Of a stretch of 64,000 bases of DNA, positions 15,637 to 56,501 are shown one piece after another. The number at the start of each line of letters is the position of its first letter. Within the stretch, counting starts at the first letter, position 1. Under the pieces are notes generated by a model. That model was given only the letters and a program-made list of their open reading frames with translations, was not told the DNA's origin and ran no database searches. Both the position numbers and the translations under genes were made by a program. Source of the DNA: an uncultured Eubacteriales bacterium (GTDB lineage: Bacteria; Bacillota; Clostridia; Christensenellales; Borkfalkiaceae); contig CAJLRM010000001.1 in the NCBI GenBank assembly GCA_905209085.1, forward strand, positions 328,289-392,288. The letters run 5' to 3'.

Positions 15637-15650
15637 AAACTCATTCCTCT

Positions 15651-17506: not shown

Positions 17507-17543
17507 AAAAACAGGCTTGTAATATAATTTCAAGCCTGTTTTT
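17507..17543. terminator. Bidirectional intrinsic terminator.
   Basis: AAAAACAGGCTTG-TAATATAATTT-CAAGCCTGTTTTT, a perfect 13-bp stem with T-runs on both strands. It sits between the immunity gene 17644..18144 and the next orphan. Confidence 0.55.
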
Positions 17544-17643
17544 ATGTAAATATTACAAAAATCGCCTTTTATCCAATTTACGCAATAGCCATTTTTATTA
17601 CAAAGAACGCTTTATAATATACTTTACAATAAACAAAAATACT

Positions 17644-29650: not shown

Positions 29651-29873
29651 CCGCTTTTTCCTCCGCCGCCTTTATGACGTCCGCCACCGTGTTCCAAGCT
29701 CCCATATCCAATTCGTCGAGTTCGAATTCGATTTGAAATTCCTCCTCTATCGCCACCAAGACGGCGACGAAGGAAAGACTGTCCAAACTCAACGCCTTTA
29801 ATTCGCTCTCGGGGGAAACGGCTTCTTCCAGGGCACAGCCTTTTTGAATGATGCTTATAATTTTTTCTTTCAT
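29637..29873 (-). CDS. Acyl carrier protein (ACP-1).
   Basis: 78 aa from the internal ATG at 29873 (MKEKIISIIQKGCALEEAVSPESELKALSLDSLSFVAVLVAIEEEF...). LDSLS is the phosphopantetheine attachment serine motif. Its ATG overlaps the ligase stop as ATGA. Confidence 0.7.
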   Translation of the reverse strand: MKEKIISIIQKGCALEEAVSPESELKALSLDSLSFVAVLVAIEEEFQIEFELDELDMGAWNTVADVIKAAEEKADDKK

Positions 29874-31126
29874 CGCCGTATCTTCTTTCCGCTGGCAGTC
29901 GTTTCCAGCTTCTCCACCTTTTTTATTCTGTTCGGCACGAGATACGGGGGCAGGTTGCGGACGAGATAAGTCCACAGCCATTCGGGCGGGATGCTGCCCT
30001 CGTATTTAAGACAGATCATCTCTCCCATATGTTCCTCCCTTTCGCCGTACACCACGCAATCGTGCACCCCCGCGCATTTCTTCGCCTCGATCTCTATTTC
30101 CTGCGGAAAAATATTGACGCCCGCGCGGATGATCATGTCGTCCTTTCTGCCGTCGATATAGTAATAGCCCTCCTCGTCCGTATGCGCCATATCCCCCGTA
30201 TACAGCCAGCCGCGGCGGATCTTTTCTTTCGTGCGCGCCTCGTCGAGATAGTATCCTTTCATCACGCACGGGGATTTCAACAACAGTTCCCCCTTCTCGA
30301 TCTTCATTTTCACCGCCCCGATAGGTTTCCCCACGCTTCCCGCCTTTTTCACGAACTCTTCGGGGAGCAGGGCGCTCGCGCGCGGACTGTGCTCGGTAAG
30401 GCCGTAGACGTTGTAAAACGCCGTTTGCGGCAGAGCCTCGGAAAGCTGACGCGCGGCGGCTTCCGTCAGTCTTTCGCCGCTGACTGCGGCGGTCTTGACG
30501 GGCAGCGGCTTCCCCTTGACGCTCCTGACGAGCGCCGCGTACAGGGTGGGCGTCGCGCAGAATACGTCTATTTCCTTTTCCGAGAGAAAGTTAGCCAGCC
30601 TCGCGGGCATAAACGACTCCTCGTAAAAATAGATCGTCAGTCCGCTGACGAGTCCGTACAAAAGCTCCCCCGTCAGCACCGCGATATGCACCAAGGGGCG
30701 CGCGATACAGATGCTCTTCATGCCTTCCAGACGAAAATAGGAGGCAATGTATTCGAGATTGGCAACGATATTTTTGTCCGTCAGCACCACGCCCTTAGGA
30801 GTGCCCGTCGTTCCGCTCGTGAACATGACAAACGCGGTGTCGTCGCTTACCTGTCCCGCGTCTTTTACCGTTTCGCAGATATAGTTATACTGTTTCAAGC
30901 CGTAATCCAAAGAAACGGGAACGGCGGCGGCGCCCCCGGCAAGGCATTTTAAAATCGCGAGCGCCTGTTCCTCTCTCGTCCCTCCCTTACAAACTTGCAG
31001 TCTTTTTTCTCCCACCGCATTGTTCCCCCACGAGAGCAGTTCGCCGTAAGTGATTCCCGAATCCGCAAACGCGACGCGCTCCGAATACGGCTTGATTTTT
31101 TCTCTCAGATACTCCCAAAGTTTCAT
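29870..31126 (-). CDS. AMP-dependent synthetase/ligase (ANL superfamily), probably loading the adjacent ACPs in a DltA/DltC-like arrangement.
   Basis: 418 aa. Motifs: MFTSGTTGTPKGVVL (AMP-binding), YGLTE, GWLYTGDMA, GRKDDMIIRAGVNIFPQEIE. It sits between two ACP genes with ATGA overlaps on both sides. Confidence 0.8.
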   Translation of the reverse strand: MKLWEYLREKIKPYSERVAFADSGITYGELLSWGNNAVGEKRLQVCKGGTREEQALAILKCLAGGAAAVPVSLDYGLKQYNYICETVKDAGQVSDDTAFVMFTSGTTGTPKGVVLTDKNIVANLEYIASYFRLEGMKSICIARPLVHIAVLTGELLYGLVSGLTIYFYEESFMPARLANFLSEKEIDVFCATPTLYAALVRSVKGKPLPVKTAAVSGERLTEAAARQLSEALPQTAFYNVYGLTEHSPRASALLPEEFVKKAGSVGKPIGAVKMKIEKGELLLKSPCVMKGYYLDEARTKEKIRRGWLYTGDMAHTDEEGYYYIDGRKDDMIIRAGVNIFPQEIEIEAKKCAGVHDCVVYGEREEHMGEMICLKYEGSIPPEWLWTYLVRNLPPYLVPNRIKKVEKLETTASGKKIRR

Positions 31127-31356
31127 AAATATTTCTCCGTCAACAAGGTCAAATCCTTCAAAGTCAGCAGTTTCTCGGGCTGCAAGTCATCCTCGTCGAA
31201 AGAAAAGGAATACGCCTCTTCTATCGACGCGATGAGAAGCACCAAAGACAAACTGTCCAGTCCGTTCTCTTTCAGCGTTACGGTTTCCGTCAGCTGAGCG
31301 CCCGTCGTTTCCCGCGCCAGATCGACGATCTTCTTTTCGATCTCTTCTCTATTCAT
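31123..31356 (-). CDS. Acyl carrier protein (ACP-2).
   Basis: 77 aa from the internal ATG at 31356 (MNREEIEKKIVDLARETTGAQLTETVTLKENGLDSLSLVLLIASIEE...). It has ATGA overlaps with both neighbours. The upstream 178 codons of the long ORF are antisense-GC artefact. Confidence 0.7.
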   Translation of the reverse strand: MNREEIEKKIVDLARETTGAQLTETVTLKENGLDSLSLVLLIASIEEAYSFSFDEDDLQPEKLLTLKDLTLLTEKYL

Positions 31357-32168
31357 TTCATCGCCTCCGCAATCTTTTTTTCGTATTCCGTTATTTCCTT
31401 TAATTCCTCTTTGAACGCGTCCGCTCGTCTTTCCCCTTTCAGCCGCCGCAGACGGACGTAAAAGTAGAGCTTGTCCAAAAGCAAGATCTCCGCTTTCAAT
31501 AGCCCCGCGATTTTTTCCGAGCCGGAAAAATATTTTTCCAGCCGTTTTCTCGTCACTCGCAGGACTCCCAACGCGCCTTCGAGTTTTTCCGATTCCCGCG
31601 GCGGACAAACAGAGGAAAACGTCTGAGTTCGGATCTTTTTTTCGCAGTCGCTCTCCGTATCCGCGCGCCCGTTTCGAAAAGCGTACGTACAAACGGCGTT
31701 GCCCGAAACTTCCTTCAACCTTTCTTCCGTAAACCGCCCTTCGGAGAGGGGATATTGATTGAGCCAGCAAAGAGAGCCGTCCACGCAGATATAATGATCC
31801 TCCCGCCAGGCTTTGCGCTTGTACTCCGCAAAGAAGGCTTCGTTCACGTGCATCAGGCAGAGATCCTCCTCCCTTTGGTTTTTCAGACATTCCGCCAATT
31901 TCTCCCGCGATCCGGGCACGCCCATCGGAAAGACGGAATAGACGTGCGCGGCGATCCCCGCTTTTTCCGCGGTTTCCTGAATGCGGGGCACCCCTTCGTA
32001 CGCCTCGTACTTTGCCCCTTGCGCAAAGTCGTCAAACACCTGCCCTATCGGAACAAAGGATTCTCCGTACAGTTTGGATACGTCGAAACGCTTTGCCAGC
32101 CACGCCAAAAAATAGCTTTCCACACACGACAGAGCGAGCGCTTCCGTAATTTCCCGTTTAGTGATCAT
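31353..32168 (-). CDS. Papain-like / BtrH-N-like Cys-His enzyme (paralog 1).
   Basis: 271 aa. Cys in ALSCVESYFLAWLAK and His in REDHYICVDGSL, aligning with the paralog 28712..29650. It overlaps the NTase stop by 11 nt. Confidence 0.45.
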   Translation of the reverse strand: MITKREITEALALSCVESYFLAWLAKRFDVSKLYGESFVPIGQVFDDFAQGAKYEAYEGVPRIQETAEKAGIAAHVYSVFPMGVPGSREKLAECLKNQREEDLCLMHVNEAFFAEYKRKAWREDHYICVDGSLCWLNQYPLSEGRFTEERLKEVSGNAVCTYAFRNGRADTESDCEKKIRTQTFSSVCPPRESEKLEGALGVLRVTRKRLEKYFSGSEKIAGLLKAEILLLDKLYFYVRLRRLKGERRADAFKEELKEITEYEKKIAEAMK

Positions 32169-33222
32169 CCTCTTTTCTCTCCTTCAAAAAACGCAGAGGG
32201 TCCAAGCTGCAAATTCGCGTCCGCTCGTCCGCCGTCCAAAGCAAGCGCTTTTTCCCCTCATAATCGATCACTTCGGGCTGTCTTTCCCCGTATTCCTCCG
32301 CGGCCGATTTCAGTTCTTCGTCTTCAAAAATGCGCCCCGTTTGCCCGAGCACCGTACCGATTTCTTTCTGTACGCCGTACTTGAAGGCGAGTTTCTTCAA
32401 ATCGCCCTTGTCGAAGGAGTCCTTTTTCCATAGATAGTAGATGTCCGCAAGTTTATAAAGATCGAGATCTTTTCTCCGCTCCGCCATAAAGTACAGACAG
32501 CTTTCCTTGTACTGATGCAAAATGAGGTGCAGAAAAAACATTTCCTCGTTCGCCACGTACATGGGCACCTTGCCCGCGTATTCTTTGCGCGTCGCTATCA
32601 TCTCCGAAAGCAGAGAGTCCCTCTCTCCCGGCACGTTTCCGAGCGAAAAATTGATGTCCGCCTCTATGAAAGGGAGTTCGGGATTGCCCGTCGTCTTCAA
32701 AAAGGGCGCCGTTTCTCCGCGGTTCATGCGGCGTTTCAGAATTTCCAGACGCGGGAAAGGCTTGATCTTTTTCTCCCCCGGCGCATACCTGCCCTGTATA
32801 AATCCCAGCTTTTTCAATGAATTTTCCACCGCGGTGATACCGTCTTGCTCGACGAGAATATCGATGTCGTTGGAAATTCTCTCTCCGTCCTCATAGATAG
32901 CGCTCTCCTCTTCGGCAACGTTGCACAGCACGCTGCCTTTCAGCAAAATGTGCTCCGCGCCGTCCGCCGCCAGCGCTCGGGAAATCTCCCCGATCGCCGC
33001 GCGCATCGACTGCGTGCGCCGAATTTGCCTCTCGAACGTTTCCGAAAGGAACTTCTCTATTTTTGACGGCAGCTCTATTCGACTCTTTTTCGCCCGGTTG
33101 TAAAATAGCCCCGCGATCTTATGGCAGCAGAGGAAGCCTGTCGTTTCATACCAATCGGTCACCGTTTTGGGATTTTCCCCTTTGAGAACGGACACCACGT
33201 AGTGCAGACTGTTTTCCGTCAT
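32158..33222 (-). CDS. Pol-beta-type nucleotidyltransferase-fold protein (uncharacterised NTase family).
   Basis: 354 aa from the internal ATG at 33222 (MTENSLHYVV...). The motif LLKGSVLCNVAEEESAIYEDGERISNDIDILV fits the hG[GS]...[DE]h[DE]h NTase signature. Its ATG overlaps the kinase stop as ATGA. The 167 upstream codons of the long ORF overlap the kinase gene. Confidence 0.5.
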   Translation of the reverse strand: MTENSLHYVVSVLKGENPKTVTDWYETTGFLCCHKIAGLFYNRAKKSRIELPSKIEKFLSETFERQIRRTQSMRAAIGEISRALAADGAEHILLKGSVLCNVAEEESAIYEDGERISNDIDILVEQDGITAVENSLKKLGFIQGRYAPGEKKIKPFPRLEILKRRMNRGETAPFLKTTGNPELPFIEADINFSLGNVPGERDSLLSEMIATRKEYAGKVPMYVANEEMFFLHLILHQYKESCLYFMAERRKDLDLYKLADIYYLWKKDSFDKGDLKKLAFKYGVQKEIGTVLGQTGRIFEDEELKSAAEEYGERQPEVIDYEGKKRLLWTADERTRICSLDPLRFLKERKEDDH

Positions 33223-33863
33223 TTCGATTCCTCCCGCAAAAGCTCCCTTTCTACGACGGCAAAAGCCTTTTCGGGCTCCCCCTCGGTATCGAGCACGACA
33301 AATCCTTCCCCTTTCGCCATTCCCAGAAATTCCCCCGCGACTCTCAAAAGCAGAGGCTCGTCGAGATGACGATCGCATTCGTCGGGGCGGCTCTTTATCC
33401 GCTCTATCGCCATCAGGGGGTTCGCGTAGGCCAAAAACGCGAGGTCGGGTTTTAAAAGGTGTTTTGCCGCTTCGTAAAACCATTTTTCGTCCCTGTATCC
33501 GCGCGCCAGCATATTTGCCAGCGAAGTGTAGATGTATCTGTCGCAGATCACCGTCTTGCCCGCTTTTAAAGCGGGTTCGATCACCTCGAAGCCGTGCTGC
33601 ATCCTGTCCGACATCGTTAAAAGCTGTACGGCGCGATAGTTGATATCCTCGTGCTTGCAGCAATACATCATCTTTTGAAAGAGTTTGGTCTTTCTCGACA
33701 AATCGGTAGGCTGTTTCACGCACAGGACGCTTCCGATGCCGTTTTTCTCTTCGAGATATTTTTCCGTCAGCGAGATCATCGTCGTTTTTCCCGCGCCGTC
33801 TGTGCCTTCAAAGACGATCAGTTTTCCTTTATACGGATTTTTTCTCAGTTTCAGCGTTTTCAT
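33219..33863 (-). CDS. dTMP-kinase-like P-loop (d)NMP kinase.
   Basis: 214 aa. IVFEGTDGAGKTT is the P-loop and a DRY motif is present. The overall length and order match the thymidylate kinase family. Confidence 0.65.
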   Translation of the reverse strand: MKTLKLRKNPYKGKLIVFEGTDGAGKTTMISLTEKYLEEKNGIGSVLCVKQPTDLSRKTKLFQKMMYCCKHEDINYRAVQLLTMSDRMQHGFEVIEPALKAGKTVICDRYIYTSLANMLARGYRDEKWFYEAAKHLLKPDLAFLAYANPLMAIERIKSRPDECDRHLDEPLLLRVAGEFLGMAKGEGFVVLDTEGEPEKAFAVVERELLREESK

Positions 33864-44401: not shown

Positions 44402-45658
44402 TTATAGCATATCGTCGAACACGCCGAGAATTCCCGCGTTGATGGCGCCCATGACGGTGGCGTTTGCCGCCAGATCCGAAAAGACGATGGGGTATTCTCC
44501 CGTGAATTTTGAAATATAGTCGAGGTATTCGTTCCCGAACCCGATCACCGAACCCGTCAGCACGATCTTTTCCACGTCGAGGAGGTCGGACAAAGAAGAG
44601 GCGAACGTGGCGATGACGCGGGCGGCGGAATGGATCACCCGCACCACCAGTTCGTCTTTTTGTCTGTACGCCTCCAAAAGTTCCGTGATGGTGACGTCGT
44701 CCCACGAAAGCCCTTTTTCCCGGATCCAATCCTGCAAAACGCTCTTTTTTCCCAGGGAAAGCTCCCGCTTGACGATCGCTAAGGAACTGAAAAGCGAGGT
44801 GACGTCGTAATAGTTTCCGTAACCGAGATTCCCGTAATTGTCCTCTTCGGAGAGAAACATATTCATTTTGAAATAGCCGATCTCGCCCGCGAAACCGTGC
44901 GTCCCTTCGTACACCTTGCCGTCGATGAGCAAAGCGGCGCCCACGCCGACGTCCACGTGAAGCATCAGGGCGTTTTCCACATCCTTCAATACGTCGCCGT
45001 ACATTTTTTCGCCCAAAAGAGCCAGATTGATGTCGTTTTTCACGATGACCATGCAACCGAACTCCTGTTCGAAAATCGTTTGCAGGGAAATATTCCCAAG
45101 TTCCCGGAAACGGGGATTGAGAATGAATTTTCCGCTCTCCTTATCGATCTTGCCGGGGGAAGCGATGGCGATGCAGCAAAGCGTCCGTCCCTTTACGTTC
45201 TCGTCGTCCATCAATTGACGGATCACTTCGAGGAGGCGCGCGATGTCTTCTTTATGAAAGCAAACTCTGTCCAGCGTGCGTTTTGCGAGGATGTTGCTCC
45301 CGAAATCCGCGGCGCTGAACGAGATCTGCCAGCGGGACAAGTCCACCGCGATCACGTATCCGAAATCCGCGTTGATGGACAGATTGATCCCGCCGCGTCC
45401 CTTTGCGTCGCTCTCCCGATATACGATATTCTGTTCTATGAGATCGTCCACGATTTTCGCTATCGCCGTATTGCTGAGTTTGAGTTCCCGCGCGAGGTCG
45501 GAATAGCTCTGCGTCTTTTTTCGCAACAAATCGATGATGCTCTTTTTGTTTTTTCTTCTTAAATACGATTGATTTCTCACCTGCATATCACTTCCCATCC
45601 TTTTCGTCTTATCGATTTTTCTTAACTTTATTTTACCCCGCTTCGATTTAATAGTCAA
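44402..45658 (-). CDS. ROK-family transcriptional regulator (N-terminal wHTH plus sugar-kinase-like domain).
   Basis: 418 aa. The HTH is SYSDLARELKLSNTAIAKIVDDLIEQNIV. The ROK signature LMLHVDVGVGAALLIDGKVYEGTHGFAGEIGY is present. The true start may be a later Met (MGSDMQ or MQVRN). Confidence 0.75.
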   Translation of the reverse strand: MTIKSKRGKIKLRKIDKTKRMGSDMQVRNQSYLRRKNKKSIIDLLRKKTQSYSDLARELKLSNTAIAKIVDDLIEQNIVYRESDAKGRGGINLSINADFGYVIAVDLSRWQISFSAADFGSNILAKRTLDRVCFHKEDIARLLEVIRQLMDDENVKGRTLCCIAIASPGKIDKESGKFILNPRFRELGNISLQTIFEQEFGCMVIVKNDINLALLGEKMYGDVLKDVENALMLHVDVGVGAALLIDGKVYEGTHGFAGEIGYFKMNMFLSEEDNYGNLGYGNYYDVTSLFSSLAIVKRELSLGKKSVLQDWIREKGLSWDDVTITELLEAYRQKDELVVRVIHSAARVIATFASSLSDLLDVEKIVLTGSVIGFGNEYLDYISKFTGEYPIVFSDLAANATVMGAINAGILGVFDDML

Positions 45659-45739: not shown

Positions 45740-46972
45740 CTACTCCCGCTTCTTTAACGCAAAGCCGACCGCCAGCAATGCAAGAGCCGAAAACGTCCCC
45801 GCGCCCGCCAGGCTTTTGCAGCCGCCGCCCCCGCCCGACGAATCCCGCGCCTTTGCGACGAGATAGGAAACGGGTGCGGAAAGGTCGCTGTCCAGGGCCT
45901 CGAAGGTATCCTCCGAGAGCGCCTTGACGGAAAAGATATGTTCGCCCTCGCTCAATTCCTCTTCGACCTGATAGCTGCTCTTATTGGAGGTCTTTACGGA
46001 TTTTCCGTCGAGATATACGGTATAGAGATTGGCGCCCGCGATCTTTTCCCAGCGCAACGTCTTGCTTGCCTCGTCCCATACGAGCACGGGCGCGGGCAGT
46101 TTTTCGATGACGGGCGGCAGCTGCGTATCCGCTACGCTGACGTAAAAATCGTCCACCAAAATATCCGCCGTACAGCAGTCGAGGCTCAAAAAGCCGAAAT
46201 AATCGAACGAATTGACCTCGAAGCTGCAATCCGCCACCTGCACCCCGTCGAGATACATCCGATAGCGATTATTTTCCGCTTCGAGTTTGTATTCCATCCA
46301 GGGAGTGTCTTCGCCCGCGACCGCATTGGGCACAGCGTAGGACCGAGCGCTGAACGTCAGCTTTTCGCCGAACATTTCCCCGAACGCCGCGTCGGAAAAA
46401 TCGTTGGTCGTGCCGCCGTTGAATACGGCGTACGTATGCGGGGAAACCTCCGTGTTTTGCGTATACCTCTGTACGGTGAAGAGCAGATTGTTCGTCCCGA
46501 GATAGTGCGCCTCCGCCTTTTTTCGGAAGGAAATTCCCACCCAGCCGCGCTCCGCCGCCTTTTCCGTCAAAAATTTCAGCCGAAACCCCGCCGTGAAATT
46601 TTTTACCCGATAATCCCCGCCCGGACCGATATGGAAATAGGAATTCATCGCCACCGAAGCGTTGTCGAGATGGAGAACTTTGTTCCCGCTTTCTCCGTTT
46701 TCGTATTCTATTTTGCCCACTCCCTTCAAGTGCGCGTCGATTCCCTGTTCCTCGCCGCCGTTTAAAACGTTATTCGACCATTTCTCCGCAAACGCGGCGT
46801 CCGTTTCGATAAACGCGCCGTCCGCGGCGTAGGATTCGAAGTCGTCGGAAAAGCCGGGCAGCGCCGCGCGCTCCTCCGCATAGGCCGCTTTTGAAGAGAA
46901 CGGGCTCAGCGATATACAGAGAGCCAGAAGTCCGCCTACGAGCGAAAATGTCTTTTTCATCTTTCTATTCAT
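45740..46972 (-). CDS. Secreted LamG/concanavalin-like plus FN3-like protein with a C-terminal Gly/Cys linker, TM helix and basic tail.
   Basis: ~410 aa from Met38 (MNRKMKKTFSLVGGLLALCISLSPFSSKAAYA is the signal peptide). The C-terminus is SSGGGGGCKSLAGAGTFSALALLAVGFALKKRE. Confidence 0.55.
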   Translation of the reverse strand: MNRKMKKTFSLVGGLLALCISLSPFSSKAAYAEERAALPGFSDDFESYAADGAFIETDAAFAEKWSNNVLNGGEEQGIDAHLKGVGKIEYENGESGNKVLHLDNASVAMNSYFHIGPGGDYRVKNFTAGFRLKFLTEKAAERGWVGISFRKKAEAHYLGTNNLLFTVQRYTQNTEVSPHTYAVFNGGTTNDFSDAAFGEMFGEKLTFSARSYAVPNAVAGEDTPWMEYKLEAENNRYRMYLDGVQVADCSFEVNSFDYFGFLSLDCCTADILVDDFYVSVADTQLPPVIEKLPAPVLVWDEASKTLRWEKIAGANLYTVYLDGKSVKTSNKSSYQVEEELSEGEHIFSVKALSEDTFEALDSDLSAPVSYLVAKARDSSGGGGGCKSLAGAGTFSALALLAVGFALKKRE

Positions 46973-47218
46973 GAACCTCCCGTCACAAAACGAAAATACT
47001 TTCCCGCCCCTTGCGTCCTTCCTTTTGACGTCACCGCTTTGCGGAAAAGGCAAGGGGGGATATAAATGGTGAAAATCGCGCAAAAATACGGTTGAAACCG
47101 CACGACAAAATCTTTAAAGCGGACGATCGACGCCGTTCTCTTCTTTTGTAAAAAAGCTCTTGTCCGAAACTCGCCGAATATCGCCCTTCCGCCTCGCGGG
47201 GACAAACTTTTCTCCGCT

Positions 47219-48688
47219 TTACCCGACGACCACCAGCACCGCTTCCCCCGCGCCGAGGCTTACGGACAGACTTTCGCCCGCAAAGTCCTTTTTGCCGCCG
47301 CCGTCGACGGCGTAGCCGCTCACTTTCCCGTTAAAATTTAGGGTGATCTCGTCCGCCGCCGCACACCCTTGAATCGTATCGTCCGCAACGGCGTTGTTCA
47401 CGACGTAAAGAGCCGTTTTGCCGTCGTAGTCGAAACATCCGACGAGGGCGTGATTGGAAGAAACGGACGAAAGTTCTTTGAACGTCCCTCCGAGAAGATC
47501 CCCTTCGGGGATGCTCATGCGCTCCTCTCCCCGATTGAGCTGAGGCATGACTCCTTTTACGATGACGCCTTCGCTCTTCGCGCACATCAGTACTTCGTCC
47601 ACCGCCGCGATCATCTCGTTTGCCAGCTTCACGCGGCCGTACATTTCCGTCTTATTTCCCTCTGCGTCGAACATGGAGCCGACGAAATCCCCCTGCGGAT
47701 TGACGCCGCAGAAATACTGAATCCCCTTCGCGCCGTAAGCGAGGCAGGTATTGACGTTCCACAAAAGATCCGCCTGCGTCGGGAGCCGCTGACCGTCCGC
47801 GAACGAACAGGTCTGCACATACACCCAGAAAGGAATGTTCGCTTTTAACGCCGCCGTGCGGATGAGGGACATATTTTCAAAATATCCGTTCATGAGAGCG
47901 GGAAAAGAGCCTTGAATGGGATAAAAGTCGTAAGAGAGCACCTGAGGCTCGAAAATTTCCATATAGTCCCGCAAATATTGCTCATAGGTGTACGACTCCA
48001 CGGGCAACGTGTCTTCGGAAGTATAGGAACGGAACCAAAGCTGCTTTTCGTTCGCATACGTCGGAAACAGATTGACGTGATAGAGCTTTTCGGAAGTATC
48101 CTTTAAAACGTTTTCGAAGATCGAGCGCGAGGAGGCGAGATTTTCGTACATCGTTCTGCCAGGTTCGTCCGAGAGCATGATGCCCGCGAAATTCTCGTGA
48201 TGCATGACCGTGGCGAGCGCGCTGCGGACGTTGCTCTCCGATTTGACATTGTCCGCGCCCGAGTACGCGAGCAGATACGCCAGATCGTAATCGTAACAAA
48301 AATCGAGCGCCGTCGCCACGTCCGCCTGATTCAACGTGACGTAATCGGTAAGCCCCATCATCGTGTTGACGCCCGCCTCCGCGTACGCTTTAAAAATTTC
48401 CTCGTCGGTGAGAAAATTCTTTTCGTAGCCGTATTTTGCGGGAGGGATGGAATTGTACGCCCCCACGGGCATGGTCTTATAATCGTGCTGGGGAAACCAA
48501 TACGAGCCGTACGTGCCGTAATCGATCGTCCCCCCTTGCGCCGAGGAGCTGTCGGACAAAGAATTTCCGGGCGAGGAATCGGCGGACGAGCTTTCCGCGC
48601 TGTCGGACGGCGCCGCGCACGCCGCCGAGAAAAGCAGCAGCGCGGACAAAAACGCCGACGCGGCGATATAAAATTTCTTTTTCATCAT
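47219..48688 (-). CDS. Lipoprotein, putative TIM-barrel glycoside hydrolase with a C-terminal beta-sandwich. Paralog of 55065..56501.
   Basis: 489 aa from the ATG at 48688 (MMKKKFYIAASAFLSALLLFSAACAAP; RBS AGGAAAG). It shares GIQYFCG and terminal beta-domain features with the paralog. The 81 upstream codons of the long ORF are artefact. Confidence 0.5.
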   Translation of the reverse strand: MMKKKFYIAASAFLSALLLFSAACAAPSDSAESSSADSSPGNSLSDSSSAQGGTIDYGTYGSYWFPQHDYKTMPVGAYNSIPPAKYGYEKNFLTDEEIFKAYAEAGVNTMMGLTDYVTLNQADVATALDFCYDYDLAYLLAYSGADNVKSESNVRSALATVMHHENFAGIMLSDEPGRTMYENLASSRSIFENVLKDTSEKLYHVNLFPTYANEKQLWFRSYTSEDTLPVESYTYEQYLRDYMEIFEPQVLSYDFYPIQGSFPALMNGYFENMSLIRTAALKANIPFWVYVQTCSFADGQRLPTQADLLWNVNTCLAYGAKGIQYFCGVNPQGDFVGSMFDAEGNKTEMYGRVKLANEMIAAVDEVLMCAKSEGVIVKGVMPQLNRGEERMSIPEGDLLGGTFKELSSVSSNHALVGCFDYDGKTALYVVNNAVADDTIQGCAAADEITLNFNGKVSGYAVDGGGKKDFAGESLSVSLGAGEAVLVVVG

Positions 48689-48723
48689 TTCTTTCCTGTT
48701 CCTTTTATTCGTAAAACCGCGCG

Positions 48724-49590
48724 TTATCCCTTGATGCCGCCGATCGTCGTATTGTTCATGATCGTCTTTTGGAAAATGCTGAAAATGACGAGGACGGGAA
48801 TCATGGAAAAGATCACCGCGGCAAAAACCTGGGGAAGATTGTTCTTGTTCTGATCGGAAATCCGCTGTAAGCCGTAAGCGATGGTCGCTTTTTCGGGCAT
48901 ATACATATAGACGGTGAAATAGTCGTTCCAATACCCGATCGCGGAAAGAATGCCCAGGGAAACGAGCACGGGCACCGCCATGGGAATCATGATGGTGAAA
49001 TAGATTCGGAAATGTCCCGCGCCGTCGATCTGCGCCGCTTCCGCATACGTCCAGGACAAATTTTTATAAAAGCCGTACATGATGAGAAAATACGAGCCGA
49101 ATCCGCCGCAGGCAAAAATGAAATATCCCGTATACGTATTGATCAGTCCGACAGAATTATACATTTTATACGTGGAAGCCATGGATCCCATCGTCGGAAT
49201 CATCATGATGATCACCGCGAAGGAATAGAACGCGTCCCTGCCTTTAAACTCGTACTTCGTCACCACATAGGCGGTGGCGGAGCAGGACATCAGGGAAAGA
49301 AAAGTGGCTCCCACCGTCATAAAAAGGCTGTTGAAATACATCATCGGGACGGATACGCGGTCCGCGGAAAGCGTAAAGCTGTTTTTCCAGTTTTCCAGCG
49401 TCCATACCTTGGGCAAGCCGTTGATATTTAAAAAGAAGTCCTTTCTCGTCTTGAAAGAGTTTAAAAGGCACCACAAAAACGGAAACAACAAAGATACGGC
49501 ATACAAGGCGAAAATAGCGAAAACCACCCACATGACGATGGAATCTTTTTTCGTCTTATGTACTCTATTCATTCTCATATACACCCTCAA
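48724..49590 (-). CDS. Carbohydrate ABC transporter permease (LplC/UgpE-like).
   Basis: 288 aa with six TM helices and an EAA-loop region (YAEAAQIDGAGHFRIYFTIMIP). Confidence 0.8.
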   Translation of the reverse strand: MRVYMRMNRVHKTKKDSIVMWVVFAIFALYAVSLLFPFLWCLLNSFKTRKDFFLNINGLPKVWTLENWKNSFTLSADRVSVPMMYFNSLFMTVGATFLSLMSCSATAYVVTKYEFKGRDAFYSFAVIIMMIPTMGSMASTYKMYNSVGLINTYTGYFIFACGGFGSYFLIMYGFYKNLSWTYAEAAQIDGAGHFRIYFTIMIPMAVPVLVSLGILSAIGYWNDYFTVYMYMPEKATIAYGLQRISDQNKNNLPQVFAAVIFSMIPVLVIFSIFQKTIMNNTTIGGIKG

Positions 49591-49592
49591 AG

Positions 49593-49615
49593 AGCTTTTG
49601 AGGAAAGGGGAGAGG
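49593..49615 (-). promoter_or_regulatory. Intercistronic stem-loop between the 938-aa gene and the permease gene.
   Basis: GGAAAGGGGA-GAGGC-TCCCCTTTC. There is no U-tract, so it is a likely mRNA-processing or stability element. Confidence 0.35.
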
Positions 49616-49665
49616 CTCCCCTTTCTTAAAAACTCACATACGATTTCTTGCCGTGCTTTTACAAT

Positions 49666-52482
49666 TTACTTTCTGCGTTTTTTCGAGAACAGAAGCGCCG
49701 CTGCGCCTGCCGCCGCGATCAAGGCGCCGCCGCCCATGGCGCTGCCGCAGCCGCTTTCCGTACCCGACGAGCCGGAAGTATTCTCCGAACTCTCCTTCGT
49801 TGAAGAATCCCCGCTGTCGCTCGCGGAATCGCCGCCCGACGAAAGGACGTAGTCCACCGAGTTTCTGGACGCGATATGCGCCGCCGTGTCCGAAGGGTTC
49901 GCAGTTACCGTCACTTTATACGTGCCGTCCGCCGTCAGAGAGGAGAGGTCGATCTCCGTGGCAGTCACGTTCTTTTCCAGCACCGTATCGCTGCCGAGTT
50001 TCACCGTCACGTCATAGCTCGCCGCGCCGTCCACCGCTTTCCAGGTGACTTTTTTCGCCGAAGGATTCGCCGTCAGTTCCGGTTTTTCGAGCGGCGTGGG
50101 CAGAGGGTCGTTCGCCATGTCGGCGGGAGCCACGTCCGCGACGAAATCCGCGGTGAGAGCCTTTTCCGAAGCCGCAAACGTCAGGACGTCCCGGCGGGAA
50201 ACGGGCGTAACCGCAAAATTGTCCATTTCGAAATAGGCGGGAGAATCGGTGGCGATGCCGAGATAGCCTTCCGTGTCCGCCGCGTTAAATTCGAGGACCT
50301 TTATGTATTCGCCTTTGACGGCGCCCGTCGCGGCGTCCACTTCCGCCAGAAAGAGCGCCACTTTGTTGTTCACGCAGACGAGCTTGACTCGCGTGGTCTT
50401 GTTGTACATACTGTAAATATTTCCCGCGTTGTCGGGATCGGGATCGTACCACGCCGCCACGTTGTTATCGGGCTTGCTTGCGTCGTACCCGCCGTTGTAA
50501 TTGGGAATAGAAGTCGCGGTGGGGGAAGTCGTCGCTTTGAGTTTGGACAAAGCTACCGTGGGGCATTTACAGGTCGCAGCCATAGCCAAGGGCGCAATGA
50601 TCGTTTCGTTGTTGCCGTAAAAATCGATGGCGGCGAGTCCTTCGTTGATGCCGATCGCATACACGGTGCTGTCCGTGATGGAGAGTCCGCCCTCTTTCAT
50701 GCCGAACACGAGATAGGCGGCGGAAGGTCTGTTGCCGCTCAGAACGAGCGCGCCCCTCTGCTGTACGGGGACGGAAATATAATCGAACTGCATCACGAAA
50801 TCCGCGTACTTCTTCGTGGTGAGCAGGCGGGTGCCCGTCGAGGTGCCGTAGAATCCCAATTTGCCGTTTTCCGCGGTGACGCCCGTCAGATCGTGCGAAG
50901 TAGAGTCCGTCTTGATCATGTGCGTTTCGGGAGCGATGTTGGAAGCGAACTGGAATTTGTCGCTGCTGATATAGTTCCCCGTAAAGTTGCTGGTCACCGT
51001 TTCCGCGCCCTCTTCGTTGTCCTTGAATTGGTAGCCCGTCATCGTCAGGTTATCTTTGAGCATATAGCTCAAATTGCCTTCGCCTTTGTGCGTAACGGCG
51101 AAAAATCCGTCGGGATCGAAATTTTCGAGAAGGATCTTTTCGTTTTCCCCGACGACGATTTCGAGGTCGGCGCCCTTTCCCGTAAACGTCACGGGGATCG
51201 CCGCCGCGCGTTCGCCGATCGCCCCGTCCGCCACTTCCACTTCGGCAAACAGCGCGGAAGACGCCTCTTCTTTATCCACCTTCTCTCCGCCGAACATCAC
51301 CTTGCCGTCTTTGACGGTAAAATAGAAATAACTGTGCGCGCCCGTCAGGGAACGGCTGTTTTCATAGCCGAATCCGAATCCGACCTTCTGCCCCGCGGCA
51401 AGTTCTTTGAGAATGACCTGCGCCTTCATTTCGAGATTGGTCGCCAGGCCCTTATCCGTTTGCAGAGCCGCCCGCGTGACGATTCCCGTGCCCGCGGCGG
51501 GATTGGTGATATTGAGTCCGCTCGCCTCTCTCGGCGTGCGTTCCAATCCCCTGGCGATGAAACAGTCCGCCGCTGCCGCCGCGTCTTTCTCCGTGATCAC
51601 TTTGCTCGCGTCGTCCATATCGGTGGTGAAAATCGTATCCGTCTTGGTCGTTTCCCCTTCCTGATAGGAAGCGGTGAGCGTCGCGCCGTCCACGACCAGC
51701 CCGTTCGCATAGCGCACATACGCATTGGCGAAAAAGTCGGAAGTGCCGTCGTAAGGCGCCCAATTGGATACCACGGAGGTGACCTCCGTCCATCTGTCCC
51801 ACTCGGAGAAAAATCCGTTGATGAGCTTTACGTCCACCCAGTCGTTCTCGTTCACCGTCATCTCCATGCGGAAATAGGTATTGCCGTACGCCGTGATATT
51901 GTTTTTAAAGGTGCCGGCAGACCAGGAATACGCCTCCCAGCCGAGCTCTCCCCCGAGGGGAATATCCTTTCCCGCTCCGCCGTTATAGAAAAGCTGAGGC
52001 ATCGGGTCGTCCGCCGTCGCGGACGCTCTTTCCCCCGCCACCGAAGAGATACCGTTATTGCCGCCCGTCAGGACAAAGCCGTAGGTGTGGCTTTCGGAAA
52101 GAGATTTCGCTCCGGGGACCAGCTTGAATTGCAGATTATCGCTTTCGAGTCCCACAAATTTATACGTGAGCGTCACCTTTACGCCCTCTTTCGCCATCGT
52201 CGCCTTGGGCACGGGCGTGCCCACCAGCATTTCCTGCCATTCGCCGTTGTTATAATTGACGGCGTAATCGGTCGCTTCCGCCGCCACGTATGCGTCGGCG
52301 TCCCCTTCCGCCTGTTCGAGGACTTTAAAGTTCGTGAGGTTGATCTCGTTCTTCGACGTAATCAAACCGTCGCCCGCAGGCTTGCTTTCCACCGTCCCCG
52401 CGCTTGCGAGAATCGTGCCGGTACCCAGCGATCCCGCCAGCAGCACCGCCGCCAGCAGCGTCAGAAATTTTTTGTTTCTCAT
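49666..52482 (-). CDS. 938-aa secreted multi-domain surface protein (several LamG/concanavalin-like domains plus FN3-like) with a C-terminal Gly/Ser/Cys linker, TM helix and basic tail.
   Basis: The signal peptide is MRNKKFLTLLAAVLLAGSLGTGTILASA. The C-terminus is SGSSGTESGCGSAMGGGALIAAAGAAALLFSKKRRK. The gene is inserted between the two ABC permease genes. Confidence 0.6.
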   Translation of the reverse strand: MRNKKFLTLLAAVLLAGSLGTGTILASAGTVESKPAGDGLITSKNEINLTNFKVLEQAEGDADAYVAAEATDYAVNYNNGEWQEMLVGTPVPKATMAKEGVKVTLTYKFVGLESDNLQFKLVPGAKSLSESHTYGFVLTGGNNGISSVAGERASATADDPMPQLFYNGGAGKDIPLGGELGWEAYSWSAGTFKNNITAYGNTYFRMEMTVNENDWVDVKLINGFFSEWDRWTEVTSVVSNWAPYDGTSDFFANAYVRYANGLVVDGATLTASYQEGETTKTDTIFTTDMDDASKVITEKDAAAAADCFIARGLERTPREASGLNITNPAAGTGIVTRAALQTDKGLATNLEMKAQVILKELAAGQKVGFGFGYENSRSLTGAHSYFYFTVKDGKVMFGGEKVDKEEASSALFAEVEVADGAIGERAAAIPVTFTGKGADLEIVVGENEKILLENFDPDGFFAVTHKGEGNLSYMLKDNLTMTGYQFKDNEEGAETVTSNFTGNYISSDKFQFASNIAPETHMIKTDSTSHDLTGVTAENGKLGFYGTSTGTRLLTTKKYADFVMQFDYISVPVQQRGALVLSGNRPSAAYLVFGMKEGGLSITDSTVYAIGINEGLAAIDFYGNNETIIAPLAMAATCKCPTVALSKLKATTSPTATSIPNYNGGYDASKPDNNVAAWYDPDPDNAGNIYSMYNKTTRVKLVCVNNKVALFLAEVDAATGAVKGEYIKVLEFNAADTEGYLGIATDSPAYFEMDNFAVTPVSRRDVLTFAASEKALTADFVADVAPADMANDPLPTPLEKPELTANPSAKKVTWKAVDGAASYDVTVKLGSDTVLEKNVTATEIDLSSLTADGTYKVTVTANPSDTAAHIASRNSVDYVLSSGGDSASDSGDSSTKESSENTSGSSGTESGCGSAMGGGALIAAAGAAALLFSKKRRK

Positions 52483-52525
52483 CTTGTTTCTCCTTTCATT
52501 TTATACGGGTCGCACCCGTTTTCTT

Positions 52526-53479
52526 TTAATATTCATAGACGGGGAACGCCTTATCGAGCACTTTCCGCACGATCAGCACGATAGGAGTCCCGATCAATGC
52601 GCACAAAACGCCGATAGACGCGCCCATAGCCATCTGCGGCGTGCCGTTGTCCCGCACATTGGTTACGATGTATAGAGCGATCGTATACCCCTTGGCGGAC
52701 GCCGCCGCGTCGCCCAGCAGCAGTTTGGGCTGCAAAAAGTAGCTGAAAATAACCGCCGTCCCCATCAGAAGCAGCGTCGCCAGCGTCGATCCGATCAGGG
52801 GAATCACCACGTACCAAAGCTCCCCCATCAGTCCGAGTCCGTCCAGTTTCCCCGCTTCGAGCACCTCGGCGGGGATACGCGCCATCGCCCCCGACATGAG
52901 AACGATGTTGCCGCCTATGCCCGACCATAAGCCGTAGAAAAGGATCGTCCACCACGCCGTCTTGGGATCGGCAAAATACCCGTCGAACGGAACGAGCTTT
53001 TCCAGTCCCAGATTGGCGAACAGTTCGGGAATAAAGTTGTTCAGCATATAGGAATAGGAAAGCGTGAGGACGGTGACCGAAATGATGGACGGCAGGAAAA
53101 AGATCACTTTATAGAGATTATTGAGAGGGATCTTTTTATACAGCATATACGCGCAGAAAAGAGAGATCGGCAGGATGACAAAATCGTTCCATAAAAAGAC
53201 GGTAAACGAGTTCCATACCGCGCGCGGCAGTACGCTGTTCGGCTTTACGAAAGCCGTATACAACTCCTTATAATTGGCAAACCCCGCCCATTTCCATTCG
53301 CCCGACAGCATATCGAAACGCTTGAAGGACAGCAGAATCGAGTCGAAGTTGACAAAGAGCCAGAATACGCAGAAATGCAAAACGGGAATCGCCATCAGCG
53401 TGATCATAAACGCGATTTCGTTCGCGCTCTTTTTTCTGCGTTTTCCGAGAACGCAGCGTTTATTTTTCGTTTGCTCCAT
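52526..53479 (-). CDS. Carbohydrate ABC transporter permease (LplB/MalF-like).
   Basis: 317 aa. It has TM helices and a long N-terminal helix typical of LplB-type permeases. Confidence 0.8.
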   Translation of the reverse strand: MEQTKNKRCVLGKRRKKSANEIAFMITLMAIPVLHFCVFWLFVNFDSILLSFKRFDMLSGEWKWAGFANYKELYTAFVKPNSVLPRAVWNSFTVFLWNDFVILPISLFCAYMLYKKIPLNNLYKVIFFLPSIISVTVLTLSYSYMLNNFIPELFANLGLEKLVPFDGYFADPKTAWWTILFYGLWSGIGGNIVLMSGAMARIPAEVLEAGKLDGLGLMGELWYVVIPLIGSTLATLLLMGTAVIFSYFLQPKLLLGDAAASAKGYTIALYIVTNVRDNGTPQMAMGASIGVLCALIGTPIVLIVRKVLDKAFPVYEY

Positions 53480-53543: not shown

Positions 53544-55022
53544 TCAGTTCACCCAGGTATCCCAGGCGCCCTTGACGCCCGCGTATTCCGCCGCGCACCA
53601 GCTGTCCGCCGTCACGCCGGGATAATTGATGAGAAGATTGACATACGGATCGCCCGCGTTGAATTTGCGCACTTTGAGTCCCGTCCAAAGAGGGCTTCTC
53701 GAATCCTCGAACCACGTGGTGGAATTTTTCCAGATGTCGATACAGGACTGCTGGAAGGAATTGAGGGAGATCGACTCCACATCGTACTCGAAAGGCATGG
53801 GCGTGCCGCAGATCTCCGTATACAATCTAAGCATATCGTCCCGGCACACATAGGCGAGAAACGCCTTGGCGCCCTCTTTGTTCTTCGCTTTATTGGGAAC
53901 GGCGACAAAGCTGGGCTGACCGCTGTAATTGTAAGAGATATACTCGCCCTTCTCGTCCTTTAACGCGTTGTCCATATAAGGGACGGGCATCATGCGGATC
54001 TCGTCCTCGATGTCCTCGCCCGACTCGTTTTGAATCCAGCTGCCGTTGGGGATCATGGCAGCCATGCCCGCGCCGAACGCCTGCTGCGCCTGATAATGAT
54101 CGTAAGAGCCGGACATTCTCGCAATGTATTTTTCTTTATTTTTGACGATCAGATCCTCAAACGTTTGGAGCATCGTCAACTTACCGTAAGAAGGGCTGCT
54201 AAGCTTATCGCTGTTGAAAAGTTCGGGGCTGTCGAACTGCATGAGTTCGTTCATCTTTTCCTCGCCCGATACTTGCAGCCACCAATTCGTACCGATGAAA
54301 TCCCAATAGCCCCCGCTGACCTTTCCCGGATAGACGAAAGGCGCGATTTTGCCGTTCGTATCCGCCACGATCCGGTCGCAGAGCGCTTTCAGTTCCGTCA
54401 CCGTTTCGGGGACTTCCCATTCGTATTCGTCGAACATGGTCTTATTGTAGACGAGTCCCGTCACAGAGGTGGCGCTTGGGAAAATGTAATAGTGCAGATT
54501 GTTTTGGTTGTATGCCTGGCCGTACGTCTTCCAGGAACCCGTTATCTTTTCGAGAATCGTCTTTTCCTCGCCCGGGATCTTCGTGTTATACAGCTCGTCG
54601 AGATTTTCAAGCTGATCCAAAGACGCATAGCTTTGCCAAGGCGAAGCCAGTAAGTAATAAATATCGTCGAGATTGCTGCCCGCTTCCAATTTCGAGCTCA
54701 TCGCCGTGGTCGCCTGGGCGTCTATCGTCAGTACGATATAATACTCCTTTCCCTCGTCCGCTTCCAGGAAATGCCGCGACAGCTGACGGATCCATTCGCT
54801 GCCGTTGCCTTCCGAATAGGTGATCTTGATGGGAGTCTTGCCCTCCTTGGTATCCAAATACATCTCGCCCTTCTTGCTGTCGAAAACGACGTCGCCGTAA
54901 GCGCCCGACGAATCGGAAGGGCCTTTCGAGTCGTTTTCGCGGCTGCCGCAGCCCGCCGCAAAGCTCGCGCCGAAAATCGTGACCGCCGAAAGACATACCG
55001 CCAAAAGTTTGTTCAATTTCAT
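53544..55022 (-). CDS. ABC transporter extracellular solute-binding lipoprotein (LplA-like, family 1 SBP).
   Basis: 492 aa. The lipobox is MKLNKLLAVCLSAVTIFGASFAAGCGS. The length and composition match sugar-binding proteins. Confidence 0.75.
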   Translation of the reverse strand: MKLNKLLAVCLSAVTIFGASFAAGCGSRENDSKGPSDSSGAYGDVVFDSKKGEMYLDTKEGKTPIKITYSEGNGSEWIRQLSRHFLEADEGKEYYIVLTIDAQATTAMSSKLEAGSNLDDIYYLLASPWQSYASLDQLENLDELYNTKIPGEEKTILEKITGSWKTYGQAYNQNNLHYYIFPSATSVTGLVYNKTMFDEYEWEVPETVTELKALCDRIVADTNGKIAPFVYPGKVSGGYWDFIGTNWWLQVSGEEKMNELMQFDSPELFNSDKLSSPSYGKLTMLQTFEDLIVKNKEKYIARMSGSYDHYQAQQAFGAGMAAMIPNGSWIQNESGEDIEDEIRMMPVPYMDNALKDEKGEYISYNYSGQPSFVAVPNKAKNKEGAKAFLAYVCRDDMLRLYTEICGTPMPFEYDVESISLNSFQQSCIDIWKNSTTWFEDSRSPLWTGLKVRKFNAGDPYVNLLINYPGVTADSWCAAEYAGVKGAWDTWVN

Positions 55023-55064: not shown

Positions 55065-56501
55065 TCAATAGGGAATCACGAAACACCCTTCCCCGCTTTT
55101 TAAACTCAGCGTCAATTTGCCGTCCTTGACGGGACGAACGGATTTTACGCCGTTGAGGACGACGATGGCGTTATGTACGCTCTCCACCGTCAGCGTCACC
55201 TCGTTGTCCAGTTTTCTGCCCGGATCGGTAAAATTGACGACCATATAGCCTTCCCGCGCGTCCTTATCTTCGAACACGCCCACGAGCACGTCCTCCGTGC
55301 CCTCCACTTTCTTCACCGTCTTGGCGCTCTCCATGCGCTGCACGCGCTCGAAATTGCCCTCGCCGCCGTCTTCGCTGGACGTCATCACGCCTTTCCACGT
55401 AAAGTTTTTGTAATAGGGCATCATCGCTTGGAGATAGCCGTTCGCCGTCTTTACGTAATCGAACGTCGCGGTCTTTTGATAATCGCGGTCGAGCAGGGCG
55501 TCGTTTCCGAAATATCCCGCGCCGTCGTAAGGAGGCGGACAAGTGAAGCAGAACCACTGGATCCCGTCGCCGCCGTAGGCGAGGAAGCTATAAGCCTGGA
55601 ACGCCGCGTCCCCTATGCTTTCCAAAGGTCTGTTATTGCCGAAAGAAATGCTTTGCAGGAAGGTCCACATCTTCCTGTTCTCCCCCTCTTCGTCCAGCGC
55701 TTTTCTGACCATTTCCATATTTTGGAGGAAGCTGCCTTCCAGAAAATAATCGCGGGACTTTTTCAAAGGGTAATGATCGTAACTCAAATAAGGCGTTTTA
55801 ACTTTTTCGAGGTACTGCGCGATATACGTTTCGTAACTGATGGGCGTTGCCCCGCCGAGCTGCGCGCCCCCCGCGATGACGGGAAACAGATTGACGTAAT
55901 AGCACAGATCGGGCGCCGCCTGCGTAAAGATTTTTTGCGCAAAGCCGTGCTGATCGAATTTATCCGCCGCAGGCTCGTCGCCGATAAAACAGCCGTAAAA
56001 AGCATCGGCGTATTCGTATTCGACGTACGGCTTCAAATAGTTTTTCACTTTTTCGACGGCCTGTTCCTCGGTGTCTACGCCCGATTCGACGAGCGTCTTT
56101 GCCTTCGAGAGGTAGTCGTTGAGCGCGGGAATGCTGATCAGCTGCTTGATTCCCACCTCGTGCGCCGCTTTCAGACATTTCTTGTTATAGGTTTCCGTTC
56201 CCCATAACATATACTCATAGCCGGGAAAGGCAATCGTGATGCCCGATTCGGCGATCCATTGGTATTTTTCCAGAAATTCCTCATCCGTCAGAGTTGTGAC
56301 TTTTCCCGTTTTATTCCCCCAGTCGTCGTATTCGGTGATTTTGTCGGATACCCCTACCCACATACCGATATCCAAAAGTTCCTTGGAATCGTATACGGGT
56401 TCCGACGCGGGCGTCCCGGAGTCCTTTCCTTCCGATCCGCTGCAAGCGCCTGCGGAAAACATCAGCGCCCCTGCAAGCATACACACAAATAATTTCTTCA
56501 T
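55065..56501 (-). CDS. Lipoprotein, putative TIM-barrel glycoside hydrolase. Paralog of 47219..48688.
   Basis: 478 aa. The signal/lipobox is MKKLFVCMLAGALMFSAGAC. It shares GIQWFCF with the paralog and has a C-terminal beta-sandwich ending ...GCFVIPY. Confidence 0.5.
   Translation of the reverse strand: MKKLFVCMLAGALMFSAGACSGSEGKDSGTPASEPVYDSKELLDIGMWVGVSDKITEYDDWGNKTGKVTTLTDEEFLEKYQWIAESGITIAFPGYEYMLWGTETYNKKCLKAAHEVGIKQLISIPALNDYLSKAKTLVESGVDTEEQAVEKVKNYLKPYVEYEYADAFYGCFIGDEPAADKFDQHGFAQKIFTQAAPDLCYYVNLFPVIAGGAQLGGATPISYETYIAQYLEKVKTPYLSYDHYPLKKSRDYFLEGSFLQNMEMVRKALDEEGENRKMWTFLQSISFGNNRPLESIGDAAFQAYSFLAYGGDGIQWFCFTCPPPYDGAGYFGNDALLDRDYQKTATFDYVKTANGYLQAMMPYYKNFTWKGVMTSSEDGGEGNFERVQRMESAKTVKKVEGTEDVLVGVFEDKDAREGYMVVNFTDPGRKLDNEVTLTVESVHNAIVVLNGVKSVRPVKDGKLTLSLKSGEGCFVIPY

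Follow-up and report, generated by a model that had tools for sequence, protein, structure and literature searches.

Cysteine-containing C-terminal sorting signals have been catalogued in four families, none of them in Bacillota: MYXO-CTERM (Myxococcota), JDVT-CTERM (sporadic Proteobacteria), Synerg-CTERM (Synergistales) and CGP-CTERM (Thermococcales) (doi 10.1101/2023.06.07.544157). MYXO-CTERM is cleaved by MrtX in a Cys-dependent manner, and an "Lgt-like" lipidating enzyme was postulated in that system but not identified (PMC11980579); the model proposed for MYXO-CTERM is a two-step scheme of lipidation followed by cleavage. Here we describe a C-terminal Cys tail in two secreted proteins, A and B, encoded in a 64,000-nucleotide stretch (the window, positions 328,289 to 392,288 of contig CAJLRM010000001.1) from an uncultured Eubacteriales bacterium. 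We are highly confident that this tail is a genuine C-terminal module, both conserved and widespread. Surface proteins decide glycan binding and harvest by gut Clostridia, and the mode by which the carriers of this tail are attached has so far been uncatalogued; in NCBI they are named either "hypothetical protein" or after their repeats. A recognizable tail is a route to annotating hundreds of surface proteins in largely uncultured Clostridia.

The tails of A and B compared with described signals

The two genes, their tails and the codons of the tail cysteines are located as follows.

45740..46972, minus strand: gene A, a secreted protein of 410 residues starting MNRKMKK (open reading frame (ORF) and translation; fold model)
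45743..45850, minus strand: tail of A, residues 375-410, consisting of ARDSSGGGGG-C-KS, a hydrophobic helix and KKRE (translation; tail profile 29.3 bits)
45818..45820, minus strand: codon of Cys385 of A, an invariant column in 32 homologs, with G384 conserved in at least 90%
49666..52482, minus strand: gene B, a secreted protein of 938 residues (ORF and translation; fold model)
49669..49779, minus strand: tail of B, residues 902-938, consisting of TSGSSGTESG-C-GS, a hydrophobic helix and KKRRK (translation; tail profile 33.0 bits)
49747..49749, minus strand: codon of Cys912 of B, an invariant column in 17 homologs, with G911 conserved in at least 90%

From its N terminus, A harbors a signal peptide, a ConA-like/CBM66-like lectin domain, an FN3-like domain, a Gly/Ser linker and the Cys tail. 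The 447-residue ORF that starts at a TTG at 47083 extends this gene upstream; on 23 public contigs the identical gene is called in its 410-residue form. In the structure model of A (mean predicted local distance difference test score, pLDDT, of 85), a ConA-like jelly roll with best fold matches to CBM66, galectins and GH16 is followed by the FN3-like domain, a disordered stretch (residues 380-395) and a terminal helix (residues 395-409). B has a signal peptide, tandem LamG-like domains, an FN3 domain, an acidic Ser/Gly linker and the Cys tail, and its model contains tandem jelly rolls (best matches laminin LG, neurexin LNS and BT3469), the FN3 domain and a disordered end. The first-pass annotation of this DNA, made from the sequence alone, had called both proteins LamG-rich, which these models show to be a fair description. 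A faint similarity between A and B (E=0.001) is confined to the FN3 domain and the final strands of the lectin fold.

The C-terminal sequences are ...ARDSSGGGGGCKSLAGAGTFSALALLAVGFALKKRE for A and ...TSGSSGTESGCGSAMGGGALIAAAGAAALLFSKKRRK for B, and the ORF translations match the ends quoted in that annotation exactly. With the Cys set apart, A ends in ...ARDSSGGGGG-C-KSLAGAGTFSALALLAVGFALKKRE and B in ...TSGSSGTESG-C-GSAMGGGALIAAAGAAALLFSKKRRK. In both proteins the distance from the Cys to the Lys/Arg cluster is 21 residues, which is the modal spacing among the database tails described below. LPXTG is absent from A and B, as had been reported, and no further ORF of the window carries a tail of this type. 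From the signal peptide and the positive-inside rule, both proteins are predicted to adopt an N-out, C-in topology, with the Lys/Arg cluster inside the cell and the Cys on the outer side of the membrane, at its face.

Comparison with family models from NCBIfam (release 20, June 2026) and Pfam yielded no model that reached its cut-off on either tail, nor did any on carriers with consensus-like tails. The best NCBIfam match of the A tail is Synerg-CTERM (TIGR04564), at 13.6 bits against a cut-off of 22.5; B has no Synerg-CTERM match, and its tail scanned alone matches GVDTG_CTERM best, at 16.8 against a cut-off of 29, while full-length B has no match. In the 57 tails used to build our tail profile, the commonest weak matches are to LPXTG_anchor, to the C termini of MYXO-CTERM proteins and to the MYXO-CTERM models, and TIGR04564 does not appear in the 25 families matched most often. 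The two MYXO-CTERM models, TIGR03382 (GC_trans_RRR) and TIGR03901, weakly match 8/57 and 6/57 tails, with best E values of 9.6e-3 and 1.2e-4, respectively; neither the A nor the B tail matches them. LPXTG_anchor (TIGR01167) weakly matches 27 of the 57 tails, with coverage limited to positions 16-34 of 34, the helix and basic end, and GlyGly-CTERM (TIGR03501) weakly matches three, though the tails contain no GlyGly motif. Full-text literature searches returned no description of a Clostridial Cys tail. Collectively, these comparisons place the tail among the Cys-containing tripartite sorting signals of the myxosortase type but in none of the four described families. The likeness to such signals drawn in the first-pass annotation holds, with Synerg-CTERM, one of the families it had named, as the best, subthreshold match of A.

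Synerg-CTERM (TIGR04564, with its protease MrtS, NF040589) has the same layout of a Gly/Ser-rich cluster that ends in one invariant Cys, a helix and a basic cluster at the extreme C terminus. However, in the Clostridial tails G-S and a Gly-rich stretch come after the Cys, whereas Synerg-CTERM has no spacer after its Cys; the Leu-rich helix of Synerg-CTERM contains an invariant Pro, whereas the Clostridial tails have no conserved Pro column; the Clostridial basic cluster is Lys-rich; and the hosts are monoderm Clostridia rather than diderm Synergistales with a dedicated type II secretion system (T2SS). MYXO-CTERM likewise combines a G-C motif, a membrane helix and a basic cluster, and is borne by many unrelated surface proteins per genome. 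It differs in its frequent GCGC, in contrast to the single-Cys GCGS of Clostridia, in being Arg-rich rather than Lys-rich, and in its outer membrane and T2SS step, which the Clostridial hosts lack.

More distant systems share single features with the tail. The PGF-CTERM/archaeosortase A system of Haloarchaea also operates in a single-membrane cell and exchanges the C-terminal helix of a surface glycoprotein for a covalent lipid, but its motif is PGF, its signal contains no Cys, archaeosortase is a Cys protease and the lipid chemistry is unrelated. In the eukaryotic CAAX pathway (prenyltransferase and Rce1), a lipid is placed on a C-terminal Cys and a CPBP-family protease then cuts just after it; that signal is cytosolic, four residues long and prenylated, whereas the Clostridial tail is extracytoplasmic and about 35 residues long with a helix, and an Lgt-type enzyme is implicated. 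The bacterial lipoprotein pathway (Lgt and LspA) also acts on a Cys that has small residues on either side and lies at the outer face of the membrane, and an Lgt-family enzyme is implicated in both cases. Here, however, the topology is inverted, with the helix of the Clostridial tail after the Cys, the Lgt homologs are divergent, and a CPBP rather than LspA is the implicated protease. In addition, the classical lipobox is [LVI][ASTVI][GAS]C, and the tail has no hydrophobic residue at −3/−2. At the N-terminal lipoprotein Cys sites encoded in tail loci, Gly at −1 and Gly at +1 are the commonest or near-commonest residues; the likeness of these sites to G-C-G-S is modest and lends weak support to lipidation of the tail.

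Conservation and spread of the tail

Homolog searches recovered 48 relatives of A, down to 34% identity, and 19 of B, down to 40%. The first-pass annotation had held, ahead of any such search, that a Cys not conserved in orthologs would speak against a sorting signal. Instead, the tail Cys is kept in 63/63 full-length homologs of A and B and the Gly at −1 in 61 of them; four further sequences, each truncated or frameshifted, have no tail and lie outside this full-length set. In the B family, all 19 homologs keep the Cys (18 as G-C and one as S-C). The residue at +1 is G, K, N, S or F and that at +2 is S, G or A, and the spacing from the Cys to the basic cluster ranges from 19 to 26 residues. 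The mean column identity of the tail is 25%; the Cys is its sole invariant column, with free variation in the linker upstream of the motif and in the helix downstream.

The profile built from the 57 tails separates them well from other sequences. In a test on 534 kb of related DNA, true tails scored 16.6-52 bits, all but one of them at least 21, and every other ORF scored 11.4 or less. Against 1.84 billion representative proteins, the profile matched 767 clusters at E<=0.001. Of the best 150 database matches, 147 end within five residues of the C terminus, and G-C is present in 147/147 parsable database tails. The database consensus is [E/K][E/K]K[K/G]-G-C-G-S-[S/V]-[I/V]-G, 21-23 residues, and KKK[K/E][E/D]. 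The uniformity of these top matches is partly circular, as they were selected by the profile itself, and we therefore used an independent test, in which metagenome DNA was searched with a hand-built degenerate pattern, K-x-G-C-G-S-x-[IV]-(17 codons)-K-K-[KR], that does not require a stop codon. This pattern recovered 60 metagenome stretches. At 40 loci it lies in frame in an ORF that ends 0-3 residues past the profile match, and these collapse to 34 non-redundant loci. A word-indexed protein search with the tail alignment returned 12 very short proteins only and was uninformative on carrier diversity.

The module in these alignments consists of a charged or Gly/Ser linker, the motif G-C-[GKN]-[SG], about 21 small or hydrophobic residues that would form one helix, and a Lys/Arg cluster; the stop codon follows 4-7 residues past the cluster. 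It is attached to very different proteins. By single linkage, the 59 carriers of at least 250 residues form 31 unrelated passenger groups, with Pfam content of Flg_new, Big_2, Big_3, CBM26 or none, and 50/60 full-length carriers have signal-peptide-like N termini. One 20-kb locus can encode several carriers (three in L092 and three in L096), and many, like A and B, lie in glycan-utilization loci beside ATP-binding cassette (ABC) transporters. The few named carriers are entries such as "hypothetical protein [Clostridiales bacterium]" and "InlB B-repeat-containing protein [Clostridia bacterium]", and the hosts are Clostridia. Hundreds of secreted proteins of Clostridia from gut and rumen, otherwise unrelated, share the module. 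The earlier concern that only A and B might carry the tail, which would have pointed to a plain membrane anchor, is dispelled by the 767 clusters and at least 31 passenger groups.

Lgt paralogs, CPBP proteases and the proposed anchoring of tail proteins

As the first-pass annotation had stated, the window encodes no evident processing enzyme: local Lgt and CPBP profiles found no member of either family in any window ORF, and a Pfam scan of the 32 large window ORFs found no sortase, rhomboid or exosortase. We screened multi-pass membrane ORFs near tail genes at about 44 non-redundant tail loci, and the following arrangements were found.

L039, all on the same strand: a tail protein, 57 nucleotides, an Lgt-family protein (PF01790, E 2e-31) and a CPBP/Rce1-like protease (PF02517, E 2e-15)
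L056: a target orthologous to that of L039 (42.5% identity, in a genome of different G+C), 28 nucleotides, and an Lgt-family gene cut by the locus end
L092 (31% G+C): a CPBP gene that overlaps an Lgt-family gene by 26 nucleotides, in the opposite gene order to L039
L040/L080: an Lgt-family gene 3.5 kb downstream of a tail gene, past a YugP-like Zn peptidase

In L039 the start of the CPBP gene overlaps the stop of the Lgt-paralog gene by 8 nucleotides, and the cassette is repeated in L081 (near-identical) and L075 (93% identity). In L092 the CPBP/Lgt-paralog operon is divergent from a run of three tail proteins. L040 was considered as a second full cassette and rejected, since the intervening membrane protein is the YugP-like Zn peptidase (HExxH, PF04298) and no CPBP is present. 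Overall, a divergent Lgt-family gene lies within 5 kb of a tail at 4 of the roughly 44 non-redundant loci, compared with about 0.17 expected if a genome has one or two lgt genes; the Poisson probability for three or more such loci is about 7e-4 in this post hoc test. Pfam analysis of 122 tail-gene neighbors revealed no dominant family, and among the 25 most frequent of the 99 matched families LGT is the only recurrent membrane enzyme (two members). Of the partner enzymes suggested in the first-pass annotation, the CAAX-protease family does occur beside tail genes elsewhere together with an Lgt paralog, at two independent loci, and exosortase, archaeosortase and rhombosortase gained no support. 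In tblastn searches of plasmids, the L039 Lgt paralog had no match and the L039 CPBP matched only generic CPBPs of Clostridium megaplasmids.

The four Lgt homologs are 34-42% identical to one another and match PF01790 with E values of 1e-31 to 1e-42, but score only 63-89 bits on TIGR00544, the cut-off of which is 118.9. They carry GR[IL]GC[LF][FLM]AGCC[YH]G in place of the canonical GRxGNFxNxExxG, such that the positions of Escherichia coli Lgt N146 and E151 are Cys, and they retain the YGxxRFxxExxR region. By these features the four proteins are members of the wider Lgt family rather than canonical Lgt. Both CPBPs retain the EExxxR, FxxxH and HxxxN/D motifs. The best NCBIfam matches of the L092 CPBP are, in order, MrtS (E 1.7e-11), MrtJ, MrtZ and Mrt_core (NF040914), all of those compared lying below cut-off (MrtS 44.6 of 130 bits, MrtJ 22.4 of 75, Mrt_core 17.6 of 100). 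Thus, the protease of the Synerg-CTERM system is the best match of a CPBP found beside Clostridial tail genes, although in the Clostridial loci, unlike that system, the protease is paired with an Lgt paralog. The tail-linked CPBPs can be classed as relatives of the myxosortase family, not as members by the Mrt_core, MrtS, MrtJ, MrtX and MrtP models. As a separate observation, the CPBP and Lgt paralog of L092 are part of a tightly packed operon (142-5500), in which a LacI regulator and a DUF4874/DUF4832 hydrolase precede the pair and an esterase follows it, and appear to be co-regulated with the glycan-utilization locus.

These data lead us to favor, if by a modest degree of belief, the view that the tails of A and B are C-terminal sorting and anchoring signals, in which the Cys would be S-lipidated by an Lgt paralog and the helix removed by a CPBP, leaving a lipid anchor. 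The N-terminal signal peptide would export the protein until the tail helix stops transfer. A divergent Lgt-family transferase would then put a lipid on the Cys thiol, and an Mrt-like CPBP (Rce1-type) intramembrane glutamic protease would cut on the C-terminal side of the lipidated Cys, so that the helix is discarded and the protein is held by its C-terminal lipid, in the same two steps as in the MYXO-CTERM model. The processing enzymes would be housekeeping genes located elsewhere in the genome. The Lgt-paralog genes, which overlap CPBP genes and occur in operons with tail proteins, are a concrete candidate for the lipidation step. The broader proposal, that this is a widespread and so far undescribed Clostridial pathway in which a dedicated Lgt paralog lipidates the G-C-G-S Cys in inverted topology and a partner CPBP removes the helix, is one that we hold tentatively, with rather more doubt than conviction. 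If true, the pathway would be the first such C-terminal lipid-anchoring system in monoderm bacteria, and the Lgt paralog would supply the enzyme class for lipidation, a step whose enzyme in myxosortase-type sorting has yet to be identified.

Several observations weigh against lipidation and cleavage by an Lgt paralog and a CPBP, both of which are steps that we infer. About 40 of the 44 tail loci have no Lgt or CPBP neighbor, as would be expected of a housekeeping system, and L039 and L056 are orthologous cassettes, which leaves only three independent architectures. There is no Lgt paralog or CPBP in the window or in 20 orthologous loci, and the link to the genome of the window therefore rests on analogy. 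The L039 CPBP matches no Mrt model. The variant Lgt motif is also found on four IMG/VR contigs, two of which are giant-virus metagenome-assembled genomes (MAGs), with no tail gene or CPBP nearby, so that the motif by itself does not mark the tail system. In a monoderm cell, moreover, no obvious relocation is gained by a lipid in place of a helix. Finally, the CPBP protein LnsB acts in N-terminal lipoprotein N-acylation in Staphylococcus aureus (PMC7387801), and by analogy the pair of Lgt paralog and CPBP could serve ordinary lipoproteins. On the giant-virus contigs themselves, the genes in question encode small Lgt-like membrane proteins with GRIGCFFAGCC (L100, 9749-10453; L101, 9671-10435).

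The strongest alternative, which we nonetheless judge unlikely, is that the tail is a plain, uncleaved C-terminal membrane anchor, tethered by its helix and Lys/Arg cluster, with G-C-G-S having a different function at the membrane surface; it could, for instance, be S-acylated but not cleaved, help to pack the helix, or make a thiol-linked contact to a partner or to wall polymers. Indeed, a helix with a positive-inside cluster suffices for anchoring, and the scarcity of enzymes at tail loci, including the window, fits such an anchor. However, in 31 unrelated passenger groups G-C is invariant and keeps a fixed distance to the basic cluster, which goes far beyond what an anchor needs, and some tail genes share operons with Lgt-paralog and CPBP genes. 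The helix also begins with small residues and is Gly-rich there, as would be typical of intramembrane-protease substrates.

It is distinctly improbable that the signal is handled by a different enzyme, whether a non-LPXTG sortase, a rhombosortase, an exosortase/archaeosortase-like protein or a new family, with the Lgt-CPBP pairs devoted to N-terminal lipoprotein maturation like LnsAB. The role of LnsB (PMC7387801) and the richness of these genomes in lipoproteins are consistent with that division of labor, and the weak matches to LPXTG_anchor (27/57) and GlyGly-CTERM (3/57) might hint at a sortase or rhombosortase. These matches, however, span only the helix and basic end, with no LPXTG-like or GlyGly motif, and no sortase or rhomboid is present in the most frequent 25 of the 99 Pfam families matched by the 122 neighbors. 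Furthermore, the targets encoded in operons with these enzymes in L056 and L039 carry ordinary signal peptides that contain no Cys, and the tail Cys is therefore their only lipobox-like Cys. Chance or compositional likeness of low-complexity C termini with no shared function, to which the shortness and biased composition of the tails and the incomplete independence of A and B (which share a distantly related FN3 region and C-terminal end, E=0.001) might have pointed, is in effect refuted by the conservation of the Cys (63/63), the profile scores (16.6-52 bits against at most 11.4 for other ORFs in 534 kb), the 767 clusters at E<=0.001 and the terminal position of 147/150 matches.

The sugar-utilization locus and its surroundings

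A and B sit in a sugar-utilization operon on the minus strand, the other members of which include the following.

53544..55022, minus strand: solute-binding lipoprotein of a sugar ABC transporter, with an N-terminal lipobox FAAG-C-GS (translation, Pfam)
52526..53479, minus strand: ABC permease upstream of B (Pfam)
48724..49578, minus strand: second ABC permease, downstream of B (Pfam)
47219..48688, minus strand: 489-residue lipoprotein of unknown family, between the permease and A (ORF, Pfam scan)
44402..45586, minus strand: ROK-family regulator/kinase downstream of A (Pfam)

In the direction of transcription, the order is solute-binding lipoprotein, ABC permease, B, ABC permease, 489-residue lipoprotein and A, followed by the ROK protein, a DUF4838 protein, a rhamnosidase-like glycoside hydrolase (GH) and a SASA esterase. 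The same gene order is found again in 20 loci belonging to uncultured Clostridia, Candidatus Scatosoma and Pumilibacter muris, the strain CLA-AA-M08 of which has orthologs of both A and B (locus L017). The glycan-binding surface proteins A and B belong to this sugar-uptake locus. The B gene is inserted between the genes for the two permeases of the ABC sugar transporter (window 49666-53479), a placement kept in about 20 related loci of different Clostridia (L001-L022). Two conserved lipoproteins of the operon, of 489 residues (47219-48688) and 478 residues (55065-56501), have no Pfam match and may represent new glycan-binding or hydrolase families.

Three other regions of the window contain gene groups of separate interest. 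The region 12000-27055 is a low-G+C island (0.35-0.39, compared with 0.52 or more around it) that holds a 2150-residue RHS-repeat protein (20603-27055, minus strand) and a PT-HINT pretoxin cassette (12807-13982, minus strand), and it resembles a polymorphic-toxin locus, with orphan toxin modules, that was gained by horizontal transfer. A glycyl-radical enzyme (PFL-like and Gly_radical, 5939-7996) and its radical-SAM activase (8022-8870) are located among GH43, GH2 and CBM35 genes; this setting points to an anaerobic lyase or dehydratase that acts on a sugar derivative and is tied to glycan use. Lastly, a small cluster at 29870-33723 encodes an AMP-binding enzyme, a carrier protein (PP-binding) and an NTP_transf_5 nucleotidyltransferase, and may be a D-alanylation-like or small-peptide modification system.

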